A stretch of DNA of 64,000 bases from Escherichia coli (GTDB taxonomy: Bacteria > Pseudomonadota > Gammaproteobacteria > Enterobacterales > Enterobacteriaceae): the NCBI RefSeq assembly GCF_029227855.1, contig NZ_CP074356.1; one strand, written 5' to 3'. Position numbers and translations under genes: made by a program. The notes beneath the pieces are model-generated. The model did not search any database, had not been told where the DNA came from, and was given only the letters and a program-made list of their open reading frames with translations. The stretch's first letter is position 1; each line of letters begins with the position of its first letter. Shown piece after piece: positions 35,809 through 60,260 of this stretch.

Positions 35809-35997
35809 CCCTAATTGTATATACAAAAATGTATCTACAATTATTCTGCAATTATAGCGTTGATGTTGGAAATAGCATCACGTTTCGAATAATCAACCAT
35901 GAAATTGACAATGAGTAAGTTGGACTTGATTCATCCAATAGAATTTCTCGCCTGACATGGCACACTAAACACCTCGCTGTCGGGTAATGACTCCAAC

Positions 35998-36500
35998 TTA
36001 CTGATAGTGTTTTATGTTCAGATAATGCCCGATGACCTTGTCATGCAGCTCCACCGATTTTGAGAACGACAGTGACTTCCGTCCCAGCCTTGCCAGATGT
36101 TGTCTCAGATTCAGATTATGTCGCTCAATGCGCTGAGTGTAACGCTTGCTGATAACGTGCAGCTTTCCCTTCAGGCGTGATTCATACAGCGGCCAGCCAT
36201 CCGTCATCTATACTACGACCTCAAAGGCCGACAGCAGGCTCAGAAGACGCTCCAGTGTGGCCAGAGTGCGTTCACCGAAGACGTGGCCACAACCGTCTTC
36301 CGAAGCCTGTCATACGCGTAAAACAGCCAGCGCTGGCGCGATTTAGCCCCGACATAGCCCCACTGTTCGTCCATTTCCGCGCAGATAATCACATCACTGC
36401 CCGGTTGTATGCGCGAGGTTACCGACTGCGGCCTGAGTTTTTTAAGTGACGTAAAACCGTGTTGAGGCCAACGCCCATAATGCGTGCACTGGCGCGACAT
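35998..36500 (-). pseudogene. insB: IS1 insB frame, disrupted (1-nt deletion relative to copy 2 gives a premature stop; split into two ORFs)
   Basis: Track ORFs 36240..36500 and 35998..36207; protein diverges from InsB after ...[12 protein letters not shown] and stops; direct comparison with copy 2 shows a 1-nt gap. Confidence 0.6.
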
Positions 36501-36694
36501 CCGACGCCATTCATGGCCATATCAATGATTTTCTGGTGCGTACCGGGCTGAGAGGCGGTGTAAGTGAACTGCAGTTGCCATGTTTTACGGCAATGAGAGC
36601 AGAGATAGCGCTGATGTCCGGCAGTGCTTTTGCCGTTACGCACCACGCCTTCAGTAGCGGAGCAGGAAGGACATCTGATGGAAATGGAAGCCAC
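36419..36694 (-). CDS. insA: IS1 InsA
   Basis: 91 aa [43 protein letters not shown]. Confidence 0.9.
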
Positions 36695-37007
36695 GCAAGC
36701 ACCTTAAAATCACCATCATACACTAAATCAGTAAGTTGGCAGCATTACCAAATTTTAATTACACTTAAGGTGTATATTTTCTATGCAAGCCATCAATTAA
36801 AGAGGTGTAATGTGCTGATGACTATTTGTAATCGTTATACATTCTGACCTGGAGTCAGAAGGTATTTCTCTGTCTGTGTATTCGCAGGCAGTGTGGTTGA
36901 TTACATGAAATTCAGTACATTTGTCCTTCTCGCCTGCCTTTCGTCATTACCGACGGTATTGAATTTCGTTTTCCCCATTGGGTTCTCCGGACAAGGAGTT
37001 GTTTGTT

Positions 37008-38240
37008 ATGCCACGTTTTTTTGCCCGCCATGCCGCCACGCTGTTTTTCCCGATGGCGTTGATTTTGTATGACTTTGCTGCGTATCTGTCGACGGACCTG
37101 ATCCAGCCAGGGATCATTAATGTGGTCCGTGATTTTAATGCCGATGTCAGTCTGGCCCCGGCTGCCGTCAGTCTCTATCTCGCTGGAGGCATGGCATTGC
37201 AGTGGCTGCTGGGGCCGCTTTCCGACAGGGTTGGCCGCAGGCCGGTGCTGATTACCGGGGCGCTAATATTTACCCTTGCCTGCGCTGCGACAATGTTCAC
37301 AACGTCTATGACACAGTTTCTTATCGCGCGTGCAATTCAGGGCACCAGTATCTGTTTTATTGCCACCGTTGGTTATGTCACGGTGCAGGAGGCGTTCGGA
37401 CAGACAAAAGGGATCAAGTTGATGGCGATTATCACCTCCATCGTACTGATTGCGCCGATTATTGGCCCGCTTTCCGGCGCAGCTCTGATGCACTTTGTGC
37501 ACTGGAAAGTCCTTTTTGCCATCATTGCGGTTATGGGTTTTATCTCATTTGTTGGCTTACTGCTGGCGATGCCAGAGACGGTGAAGCGCGGCGCGGTTCC
37601 ATTTAGCGCCAAAAGCGTCTTGCGCGATTTTCGTAATGTCTTTTGCAATCGGCTGTTCCTCTTTGGCGCAGCAACCATCTCTTTAAGCTATATCCCCATG
37701 ATGAGTTGGGTGGCTGTCTCGCCGGTGATCCTGATCGACGCGGGCGGCTTAACAACTTCGCAGTTCGCCTGGACACAGGTTCCGGTGTTCGGCGCGGTGA
37801 TTGTCGCGAATGCCATCGTGGCGCGTTTCGTTAAAGATCCGACCGAACCGCGCTTTATCTGGCGTGCCGTACCCCTTCAACTGGTTGGCCTCGCGCTGTT
37901 GATTATCGGCAATCTGCTGTCACCGCACGTCTGGCTGTGGTCGGTGCTGGGCACCAGTCTGTATGCTTTCGGGATTGGTTTGATTTTCCCGACCTTATTC
38001 CGCTTTACGCTGTTTTCCAATAACTTACCGAAAGGGACCGTCTCCGCATCGCTGAATATGGTGATCCTGATGGTGATGTCTGTCTCGGTCGAAATCGGCC
38101 GCTGGCTGTGGTTTAACAGCGGTCGCTTGCCGTTTCATCTGTTAGCCGTTGTGGCAGGCGTTATCGTCGTTTTCACCCTGGCCGGATTGCTTAATCGCGT
38201 GCGCCAACATCAGGCTGCCGAGCTGGCGGAGGAGCGGTGA
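37008..38240 (+). CDS. mdtM: MFS multidrug efflux protein MdtM
   Basis: ORF 36978..38240; the 410-aa form starts [23 protein letters not shown]. Confidence 0.85.
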
Positions 38241-38280
38241 TTTTTGCGCGATCCTGCCGTCAGGCTCTATTCTTAACATT

Positions 38281-57670: not shown

Positions 57671-57679
57671 CACGCCCCC

Positions 57680-58572
57680 TTAACGACATTCAGCTGATAG
57701 CTGGGTTAATAACTGCTGCTGACTCTCTGGTGGCAGTTGATAATTGGCGACACAGTGAGCATTTTCCTCTTCTCCCCATTTCACCTGAACTTTTCCCGCT
57801 AAAGGCATTCCGCTGAGGTAAACCTGACCATTATCCGCAACAATGCCGCTACTCTGGCTACTCTCTGATGTCACCATCGCCCCAAACGGCAGCGGCTTAT
57901 TATTGTGGGTTAGCGTCATGAGCAGTTTTATCCCAACGCGCGCTTTAAACTCTGCTCGCACGATCGCCCCACGGGTGGGAACAACGTTAGCGACCGCGTT
58001 ATCTAAATCGACGTTATCAGCCAGGGTATTGGTATCCAGCGCTACTCTGTTCTCCCGATATTCAGTGGCATAAGGCAGCACGGCATAACCGCGCCAGTCG
58101 GTACGCACCCCCGTCTGGTTTTCGACTTTTACATCTTTTGCGCCAGGCGCTTTAACAAGCACCACCGTATCGTTTAACGGCTGCCCCAGCGTTACGCCAT
58201 TGGCATGAGCCAGTACCCCACCGCTGACTCCGTAATAGAGCTGCTTAATATCATCGCTATGGCTGTAACCGATGTTGGCATTGCCGTAACCGCCGCGATA
58301 ATTCAGCGTGGCGTAGCCTGTACTTCCGCTATTACCATCACCTCCCCCGGCGTAACCGGTTTGCACGCTATAGCTGAGGTTGTTGTCTTCCAGCAACGTA
58401 CCGTATACACCGACCAGATTGGTCATCCGACCGTTGAGATCGTGTGACATGCTGTAACTGGCACTGGCATGTCGCCACTGAGATTTACTGTCAGAACGCA
58501 GCCAGTGGCTGAAAGGAATATTGACGTTAAGCGCTAACATCTGATCCCGTCCTTTTTGCCAGGCGTTTTTCG
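57680..58572 (-). pseudogene. fimD: fimD usher, C-terminal fragment only (about 297 of about 878 codons), truncated at the IS1 junction
   Basis: Frame ends ...VKWGEEENAHCVANYQLPPESQQQLLTQLSAECR and runs open up to the IS1 end at 58573 with no N-terminal region. Confidence 0.85.
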
Positions 58573-58587
58573 GGTAATGACTCCAAC

Positions 58588-59082
58588 TTATTGATAGTGT
58601 TTTATGTTCAGATAATGCCCGATGACTTTGTCATGCAGCTCCACCGATTTTGAGAACGACAGCGACTTCCGTGCCAGGTGCTGCCTCAGATTCAGGTTAT
58701 GCCGCTCAATTCGCTGCGTATATCGCTTGCTGATTACGTGCAGCTTTCCCTTCAGGCGGGATTCATACAGCGGCCAGCTATCCGTCATCCATATCACCAC
58801 GTCAAAGGGTGACAGCAGGCTCATAAGACGCCCCAGCGTCGCCATAGTGCGTTCACCGAATACGTGCGCAACAACCGTCTTCCGGAGACTGTCATACGCG
58901 TAAAACAGCCAGCGCTGGCGCGATTTAGCCCCGACATAGCCCCACTGTTCGTCCATTTCCGCGCAGACGATGACGTCACTGCCCGGCTGTATGCGCGAGG
59001 TTACCGACTGCGGCCTGAGTTTTTTAAGTGACGTAAAATCGTGTTGAGGCCAACGCCCATAATGCGGGCAGTTGCCCGGCAT
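58588..59082 (-). CDS. insB: IS1 InsB reading frame (normally expressed as InsAB' by -1 frameshift); lacks 3 codons (LGR) relative to the 167-aa form I recall
   Basis: 164 aa ...[36 protein letters not shown]. Confidence 0.85.
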
Positions 59083-59276
59083 CCAACGCCATTCATGGCC
59101 ATATCAATGATTTTCTGGTGCGTACCGGGTTGAGAAGCGGTGTAAGTGAACTGCAGTTGCCATGTTTTACGGCAGTGAGAGCAGAGATAGCGCTGATGTC
59201 CGGCGGTGCTTTTGCCGTTACGCACCACCCCGTCAGTAGCTGAACAGGAGGGACAGCTGATAGAAACAGAAGCCAC
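59001..59276 (-). CDS. insA: IS1 InsA
   Basis: 91 aa [43 protein letters not shown]. Confidence 0.9.
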
Positions 59277-60260
59277 TGGAGCACCTCAAAAACACCATCA
59301 TACACTAAATCAGTAAGTTGGCAGCATCACCTCGAACGTTTGCTTAATAACTTACGTAAGTGGACCAGTTCTTCTGAGTGAACTTAAATGGAGTAGCAAC
59401 AGTTAATTATAATAACGTTGCCATACAAACGCTATGCTCTTGCATGCTATGTACCTTTATATATTTATCAATCGGATACGAATCTAATAATAACTCTCAT
59501 CATTAATGCAACTAATCTTATCTATATATCATGTGATATGTTCTGTAACAAGTAAAATCAACATAAAAAATTCAGCAAAATTTAATATTCGTTCAACTAG
59601 CCGCCTCACATATGACATTATTAGTCAACTCCATTTGCCACAAAATGGCTATTTCATGGAACGCAGTAATTTCTTAGTGGCTATTATCATGCTAATTCTT
59701 AGGTCCCTAGCGATTATTCCTGGCTGGCTCGTCAGTTTAGGCCATGAGATTGTTACATTCCTTTTTATCATGGAGATATGGGGGAAAGCAGGAAACGATT
59801 TTTTCATCTACATTCGCTGGTAAATATGGCTTTGGTCACTACGACTTAAACCTTCCTCAATCACAGGTGTTCGCCGGGCGATACGGCAAACAAACTAAGT
59901 GAGGCATCACCCTGAAAACACCAACATCAACAAGCCTCTCCAGATCGACTTCAGGAGTGACCAGTTACAAGCCACAAACCAGGAAACATATTTCATGATG
60001 AGAATTATGCTCAGCCTGATGGCGGGTAAACACTGATTTTCACCAAGCTCACTGAGTTAGCTTGCAAAGCTTCCCTTGTTTAGACTCTAAATAAATTATT
60101 TATAAAACAAATAGTTAAACGAAGATCTTTAGTTTTTGAAGACCACCGCAAGTGTTCGTCTGGCTTCACATGGCATCTTCCTCTTAGAAAAAGATCGACA
60201 CATTTTGTGACACGAATTGCAAATCTGGTTTTGTTGTATGGATTGCGTGATTTTTGATCT

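Follow-up and report, generated by a model that had tools for sequence, protein, structure and literature searches.

The window analyzed here is a stretch of 64,000 nucleotides from Escherichia coli (contig NZ_CP074356.1, assembly GCF_029227855.1) that contains two copies of the insertion sequence (IS) IS1, one upstream of mdtM and the other next to a remnant of fimD. Copy 1 (minus strand, positions 35983 to 36749, 767 bp) is an IS1F-type pseudogene located at the place of the immigration control region, and copy 2 (minus strand, positions 58573 to 59331, 759 bp) is an IS1A-type element located at the place of a segment that extends from fimB into the 5' part of fimD. Searching the entire 64-kb window for the terminal inverted repeats of IS1 revealed exactly four of them, each with zero mismatches to the IS1 consensus pattern, for an expected number of 0 in shuffled sequence used for comparison. 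These were the right inverted repeat of copy 1 (IRR; plus strand, 35983 to 36005), which forms the joint with the brnT-side flank, its left inverted repeat (IRL; minus strand, 36727 to 36749), which forms the joint with the mdtM upstream region, and the terminal repeats of copy 2 (58573 to 58595 on the plus strand and 59309 to 59331 on the minus strand). The limits proposed for both elements in the initial annotation were therefore correct to the base.

Each copy contains insA on the minus strand, at positions 36419 to 36694 in copy 1, as an intact open reading frame (ORF) of 91 codons, and at positions 59001 to 59276 in copy 2. The insB frame is open in copy 2 (minus strand, 58588 to 59082) and is represented only by fragments in the ORF list of copy 1. 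Translations of insA and insB from both copies matched the NCBIfam model NF033558 (IS1 family transposase; transpos_IS1), as well as the IS1 zinc-finger domain, and the A6C motif AAAAAAC of the −1 frameshift was found at positions 36437 to 36443 (copy 1) and 59019 to 59025 (copy 2). A length of ~768 bp, imperfect terminal repeats of ~23 bp, and the combination of insA and insB' with an A6C site and a DDE transposase of the IS1 type assign both copies to the IS1 family, and the location of insA and insB on the minus strand in both, as proposed initially and supported by the ORFs and the NF033558 matches, indicates that the two copies have the same orientation.

The interval between the two copies (36750 to 58572; 21,823 bp), which extends from mdtM to the fimD remnant, is collinear with the K-12 chromosome and aligned in a single orientation with K-12 positions 4546840 to 4568790 at 97.3 to 98.2% identity. 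The order yjiA-yjiX-btsT-tsr found to the left of copy 1 is that of K-12, and window positions 59333 to 63591, beyond copy 2, continue from K-12 position 4540869 downwards with the nanC-fimB spacer, nanC, nanM, and a truncated nanS. Among the 5,426 complete E. coli genomes on which all genome counts given here are based, 4,966 covered at least 80% of a 23.3-kb query consisting of the interval and both IS1 copies. These comparisons indicate that the 21.8 kb located between the two copies is core chromosome that lies at its native place, in its native orientation, and has not been moved. Positions 35983 to 59331 differed by only 4 mismatches from E. coli O139:H28 E24377A (NC_009801.1, 4903100 to 4926448, reverse strand). 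The window is closely related to, but distinct from, that strain.

On its left side, copy 1 is flanked by the brnA/brnT toxin-antitoxin gene pair, which is located beside yjiA (minus strand, 35223 to 35799), and on its right side by the mdtM upstream region (36750 to 37007) and mdtM itself (37008 to 38240), both on the plus strand. Homology to K-12 resumes at positions 36749/36750, which correspond to K-12 position 4568790. In strain KE55, the gene order at this locus is brnA-brnT, an mrr-like restriction endonuclease gene, hsdM, hsdS, hsdR, symE, a GmrSD gene, yjiS, yjiR, rpnD, and mdtM. The left flank of copy 1 matched KE55 up to the last base preceding IS1, and the two flanks mapped to positions 2594 and 16139 of the KE55 locus, which are separated by 13,544 bp of restriction-region genes. 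By this alignment, copy 1 replaces the ~13.5-kb immigration control region located between brnT and mdtM.

The left flank of copy 2 is the fimD remnant (minus strand, 57680 to 58572), which comprises the 893 nucleotides of the 3' end of the gene and stops at fimD nucleotide 1745 (position 58572, K-12 position 4546840). The right flank is the retained nanC-fimB intergenic region (59332 to 60700), which starts 87 bp upstream of the position of the fimB ATG, at approximately K-12 position 4540870. Alignment with K-12 indicates that copy 2 replaces 5.97 kb of the type 1 fimbrial cluster, namely, the 87 bp upstream of fimB, fimB, fimE, the fimS switch, fimA, fimI, fimC, and the first 1,744 nucleotides of fimD. 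Both copies are thus located exactly at breaks of the collinearity with K-12, as initially noted, copy 1 standing in for the restriction locus and copy 2 for the DNA from fimB into the 5' part of fimD.

Simple insertion of IS1 generates a target-site duplication of 9 bp (8 to 14 bp). Such a duplication was detected neither at copy 1, where the flanking 9-mers TCGCTGTCG and AAATTTTAA match at 2 of 9 positions, nor at copy 2, where CGTTTTTCG and TCGAACGTT match at 0 of 9 positions, in agreement with the absence of 8- to 9-bp flanking repeats previously reported for this DNA. The missing duplications speak against simple insertion, not against the identity of the elements as IS1. Identical bases (tcg) precede both copies (35980 to 35982 and 58570 to 58572), a 1-in-64 coincidence that we treated as due to chance and that did not extend to any further pattern. 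At each copy, the flanks are sequences that have kept their native order and orientation but were not adjacent in the ancestor, where they lay 13.5 kb (copy 1) or 6 kb (copy 2) apart, and the joints coincide exactly with the ends of IS1. Neither copy has a 9-bp duplication because its two flanks never formed a single target site. The two copies probably mark IS1-associated deletions that are independent of and unrelated to each other, the chromosome around them being native, and the missing repeats would then result from two separate deletions rather than from an interaction between the copies.

IS1 forms adjacent deletions by intramolecular replicative transposition, as established in classical studies of gal and of plasmids. 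By this mechanism, the most likely one here, either of the two junctions now seen at each scar would have been the original insertion site of IS1, and intramolecular replicative transposition from one IS1 end into a nearby site would then have deleted the DNA located between, IS1 being kept. Suitable precursors exist, since simple IS1 insertions with 9-bp duplications are found close by in strains Ec-91 and ECONIH5, and IS1 is found in the fimD gene of other genomes. The scars are similar to the adjacent deletions described in a general account (PMC11708052) in that IS1 is kept at a novel joint between one old flank and a second flank provided by a nearby site, with loss of the intervening DNA, no duplication, and junctions located exactly at the terminal repeats. 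The same account ascribes missing target-site duplications to adjacent deletion or to recombination between IS copies (PMC11708052). Unlike in the classical cases, the mechanism is deduced here from the end products alone, and copy 1 is now devoid of a functional transposase.

Copy 1 is 97.9% identical to IS1F of K-12 and 91.7% identical to IS1A. Its insB gene contains a TAG stop (minus strand, 36208 to 36210; alignment column 542) that replaces the Trp codon preceding MTDGW, in addition to a private 1-bp deletion (minus strand, 36285 to 36286; column 465) that shifts the register. An identical copy in E24377A is labeled "frameshifted; internal stop" in RefSeq, and copy 1 is, on the basis of these lesions, a dead element that encodes no transposase. 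The TAG stop is common to copy 1, the fec-linked IS1F of K-12, and the copy present in sequence type 131 (ST131), and TGG is found at this position in the IS1F of O157 and in the copy of strain RMDEC332. The same TGG-to-TAG change thus occurs at two different loci (K-12 IS1F, L010 2473 to 3240, and window positions 36208 to 36210), implying that a defective IS1F variant spread or was copied between loci. At exactly the junctions of copy 1, strain RMDEC332 contains an intact IS1F of 768 bp (L016 338 to 1105) without the TAG, the frameshift, or the patch described below; this element is either ancestral or the result of repair by conversion.

The IS1F backbone of copy 1 is interrupted by an IS1A-like gene-conversion patch of roughly 80 bp (minus strand, 36298 to 36378; columns 372 to 452). 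Among the copies compared, the patch was present only in the window, E24377A, CUVET21-37, and B4103-1, and it was absent from EC17CM13, MDK9L1, F637, and RMDEC332, which have window-type junctions, as well as from the ST131 copy and K-12 IS1F. Copy 2 was considered as the donor of the patch, but this was not established, since columns 444 and 447 differ, and an Ec-91-type IS1 fits equally well. The patch shows that pairing of copy 1 with other copies of IS1 can occur; crossing-over with copy 2 is not thereby shown.

Copy 2 is 98.6% identical to IS1A of REL606, the 9-bp gap being counted, and displays no mosaic structure in the alignment. Its RefSeq label is "IS1 family transposase, programmed frameshift." The gap is an in-frame deletion in insB (minus strand, 58672 to 58673; columns 660 to 668) that converts ...HLARLGRK... 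into ...HLARK..., so that InsB lacks three residues (RLG) a short distance beyond its conserved E...R segment. The insA and insB ORFs of copy 2 are open, and the predicted InsB protein is altered both by the RLG deletion and by a Gly-to-Ser substitution in the catalytic MTDGW motif. Both fim junctions, each as one uninterrupted match, were found in the same 12 genomes only, of which 4 (E24377A, RMDEC332, WP8-S18-ESBL-07, and AST262) contain the 9-bp-deleted form and 8 (F9792, F6326-C1, B4103-1, CUVET21-37, MLI121, MLI114, WWCOL-315, and MB06101) contain a full IS1A of 768 bp. Since only 4 of the 12 carriers display the 9-bp loss, this loss is a later change within the copy 2 allele. None of the 5,426 genomes contained just one of the two junctions. 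The other matches obtained in the searches were IS1 copies at different positions in fimD, in many genomes, or upstream of fimB. In ECONIH5, an IS1 in the same orientation is located in the fimB upstream region, 22 bp from the fimB-side junction of copy 2, with a clean 9-bp duplication, and a second IS1 is located inside fimB.

The distribution of copy 1 is much broader. The brnT-side junction, ACCTCGCTGTCG followed by GGTAATG, is identical in EC17CM13, F637, MDK9L1, ST131, enterotoxigenic E. coli (ETEC) L4, CUVET21-37, B4103-1, and RMDEC332. This junction between brnT and IS1F is present in at least 1,004 genomes, ST131 included, a number that corresponds to the genomes covering at least 80% of a query that spans both flanks of copy 1. 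The window-type junction between IS1F and mdtM was found in 450 genomes. The remaining genomes with the brnT-IS1F junction, ST131 and ETEC L4_E1441 among them, share the left junction but not the right flank: in these genomes, mdtM is fused to a 273-bp duplicated segment made up of the 3' end of yghX and the beginning of yghW (L005 5269 to 5541 in ST131; L004 10269 to 10541 in ETEC L4_E1441). This duplicate takes the place of the mdtM upstream region and of the first mdtM codons, thereby generating a yghW'-'mdtM fusion. The core yghX-yghW region is the source sequence of the fragment; an origin of this "dienelactone hydrolase" fragment from the O157 IS1F locus, which has an alpha/beta-hydrolase neighbor, was ruled out because the sequences show no homology.

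Searching the complete genomes for a precursor of the copy 1 scar, i.e., an IS1F with a 9-bp duplication beside a KE55-type restriction gene or beside the rpnD-mdtM spacer, did not reveal any. The top matches were an independent IS1 in the brnT gene of Ec-91, which has its own 9-bp duplication, and another IS1 scar of the restriction region, present in E. coli B REL606 (L008 5001 to 5768), where an IS1A is flanked by truncated versions of a helicase-related gene and of rpnD. Strain SW071610 was considered as a possible hybrid and rejected, as it merely contains an extra IS1A inserted in brnT.

Comparison of the two copies with each other showed 90.6% identity (696 matches, 62 mismatches, and 10 gap positions), in keeping with their assignment to different subtypes, IS1F-like for copy 1 and IS1A-like for copy 2. 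The longest identical blocks are of 79, 51, and 44 bp, the first of which is created by the conversion patch of copy 1. The two copies occur together in only 8 complete genomes, and copy 1 occurs without copy 2 in about 440 genomes. In WP8-S18-ESBL-07 and AST262, the 9-bp-deleted form of copy 2 is found beside an intact yjiR-rpnD-mdtM region, indicating that recombination has already separated or combined the two alleles. Because the brnT junction is found in at least 1,004 genomes and the fim junctions in 12, the two copies are, as judged from their distribution, of very different ages, copy 1 being old and widespread and copy 2 recent and restricted to a lineage. Their pairing is a coincidence of lineage history that brought together an ancient restriction-null allele and a young fim-null allele.

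Several observations weigh against the formation of the scars by two independent adjacent deletions. One-sided precursors, which would combine a shared junction, a 9-bp duplication, and intact DNA beyond, were found for neither copy in the complete genomes, so that both the sequence of events and the preference for adjacent deletion over IS1-IS1 recombination are inferred. The TAG stop is common to the window-type copy, the ST131-type copy, and the fec-linked IS1F of K-12. If this stop predates the deletions, the transposase would have been provided in trans or the deletions would not have been made by transposase. The intact IS1F of RMDEC332 at the same junctions implies that exchange between IS1 copies blurs the history of the locus, and the two deletions do not account for the yghX' fragment of the ST131-type allele.

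The main alternative is RecA-dependent recombination between two direct IS1 insertions, located upstream of fimB and in fimD for one scar and beside brnT and in the mdtM upstream region for the other. The product would be indistinguishable from the observed scars, no active transposase would be needed from copy 1, and the TAG stop may be old. In other genomes, independent simple IS1 insertions occur at or near all of these places, namely, upstream of fimB, within fimD, within brnT, and, for E. coli B, in the restriction region. However, this route requires that each scar result from a crossover between two IS1 copies that had inserted in the same orientation, neither exact insertion was found alone in any of the 5,426 genomes, and copy 2 shows no mosaic structure. 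We therefore consider that recombination between two insertions may have formed the scars but is the less likely route.

The initial annotation had regarded the pair as a ready substrate for homologous deletion, duplication, or composite-transposon-like mobilization of the 21.8 kb, and the missing duplications could be thought to result from exchanges involving the pair. In Tn9-type composite transposons, two directly repeated copies of IS1 bracket a DNA segment. IS1-bounded composite transposons such as Tn9 are known, and the pair shares with them the two directly repeated copies around a segment. The shared orientation and the lack of duplications stood, as did the integrity of the four terminal repeats; RecA could pair the two copies along the identical blocks of 79, 51, and 44 bp, which are of sufficient length, and the patch of copy 1, which came from a non-IS1F copy, shows that homologous exchange took place in the past. 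The functional unit itself was not supported. Unlike in Tn9-type elements, the copies are of different subtypes, diverged by 9.4%, and one of them is dead; the cargo has kept the locus and orientation that it had in the ancestor, with no copy elsewhere; and no duplication surrounds the whole 23.3-kb unit, the outer flanks TCGCTGTCG and TCGAACGTT matching at only 3 of 9 positions. Copy 1 provides no transposase and the InsB protein of copy 2 is predicted to be altered, the patch disagrees with copy 2 at the two columns mentioned above, and the copies are found apart in most of the genomes that have either. As an account of the past, the working unit is contradicted by the collinearity with K-12.

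Isolates lacking positions 36750 to 58572 and carrying a single IS1 were expected from such a substrate. The predicted deletion product, in which the brnT flank and the nanC-side flank are joined by IS1, was present in 0 of the 5,426 genomes, a result that carries little weight since only 8 genomes contain the pair. A search of plasmids did not reveal an IS1-bounded copy of the interval, the full-length matches being records of 0.37 to 4.9 Mb that are evidently mislabeled chromosomes. One small record, RCS63_p (L020, NZ_LT985269.1, 22.3 kb), contains a block extending from brnA-brnT-IS1F-mdtM to iadA, in which copy 1 is internal and not at the edge. This block sits between ISEcp1-blaCTX-M-14 and sul2-strAB and is either a real chromosomal capture or an assembly artifact. 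Other IS1 copies in the genome could supply transposase in trans, and recombination or trans-mobilization of the pair could physically occur. Nonetheless, a pair without a deletion product, a plasmid copy, or an outer duplication, and with no or altered transposase, is at most a weak potential substrate, and we regard it as very improbable that the pair is a working unit.

Equally improbable is that the deletions occurred first, or concurrently, by illegitimate recombination or a double-strand break, IS1 being captured at the break. The lack of duplications and a microhomology of no more than 1 bp at the junctions are consistent with this possibility, and break capture has been proposed for some IS-associated rearrangements without duplications (PMC11708052). 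That proposal is not established for IS1, and all of the junctions are located exactly at the IS1 terminal repeats, as predicted by transposase chemistry. Finally, erasure by point mutation of target-site duplications that were once present is refuted, since the flanks correspond to ancestral sites separated by 6 kb and 13.5 kb and keep 97 to 98% identity to K-12 or KE55 as far as the ends of IS1.

The K-12 derivative MC4100, which carries the allele Delta(fimB-fimE)::IS1, and BW2952 were both found in the junction search to contain IS1 beside a remnant of a fim integrase gene. Deletions in which IS1 replaces part of fim have been reported in Shigella, including S. sonnei 53G, where IS1 has taken the place of the DNA between fimB codon 188 and the fimC-fimD spacer (PMC4374849). 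The copy 2 allele is similar to the fim inactivation of Shigella and enteroinvasive E. coli (EIEC) in that IS1 stands for part of fimB-fimD, fimD'FGH is left beside gntP, and the genotype is type 1 fimbria negative (PMC4374849). It differs from the Shigella, EIEC, and MC4100 alleles by its endpoints, 87 bp upstream of fimB and fimD nucleotide 1744, and by its lineage, represented by the ETEC strain E24377A plus 11 further complete genomes. The immigration control region (mrr-hsd-mcr) is also lacking in E. coli W and Crooks, the latter with multiple IS-related changes (PMC3032704). As in other losses of the restriction region in E. coli, the cluster located between yjiA and mdtM is gone and an IS is present at the scar. 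Unlike in these losses, only brnTA and one IS1F pseudogene are left here of the whole region, and the allele is found in at least 1,004 complete genomes across lineages.

The occurrence of a single brnT-IS1F junction with two alternative partners fits an anchored IS1F with secondary events at its other end. A broader proposal is that the IS1F beside brnT is a long-lived anchor that made at least two restriction-null alleles, the window type and the yghX'-yghW'::mdtM type of ST131, and that these alleles, spread by recombination, are a population-level factor in the uptake of foreign DNA. The two alleles together account for roughly a fifth of the complete E. coli genomes, including the pandemic ST131 and ETEC lineages. 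We put this proposal forward as a speculative one that is unlikely to hold. In the E24377A sublineage, the anchor IS1F could since have exchanged sequence with IS1A-type copies.

The window differs from E24377A and from K-12 by an 11.2-kb hpa cluster for 4-hydroxyphenylacetate catabolism located between tsr and btsT (20257 to 31512), which is absent from both strains and present in about 2,000 complete genomes. In the comparison with E24377A over positions 31804 to 64000, 34 of the 40 mismatches were located at positions 31827 to 34505 (btsT-yjiX-yjiA) and none in the following 4.7 kb (34506 to 39201). This clustering suggests the existence of a recombination breakpoint in yjiA, ~1.5 kb to the left of copy 1. 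Within the interval, yjiC (DUF2686; 49242 to 49992) is annotated as frameshifted in the near-identical sequence of E24377A. At the other end of the window (62608 to 64000), the truncated nanS is followed by a fragment of an HNH endonuclease gene and the start of a defense island, which in E24377A encodes a phosphorothioate-dependent restriction endonuclease, a DEAD/DEAH helicase, a methyltransferase, and an SNF2 protein. The presence of this island beyond nanS implies that the lineage keeps other restriction functions despite the loss of mrr-hsd-mcr.

Together, the initial observation of two IS1 copies without duplications at two breaks of the K-12 gene order is accurate, and the kind of event that it reveals is already known: this is ordinary IS1 biology, and there is no mobile unit of 23 kb. 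IS1-associated deletions, IS1 in fim, and variability of the restriction region are all well documented, so the two scars open no new question. They provide a worked example showing that, for an IS without target-site duplication, a local deletion should be tested first and interactions between IS copies only afterwards. The mrr-hsd-mcr cluster is missing at its usual locus, and this loss, like that of the fim genes, is a phenotype that matters in an enterotoxigenic strain as well as in genetic work with it. If the IS1F beside brnT did act as a long-lived anchor, loss of the restriction cluster would shape how readily the ST131 and ETEC lineages take up foreign DNA.

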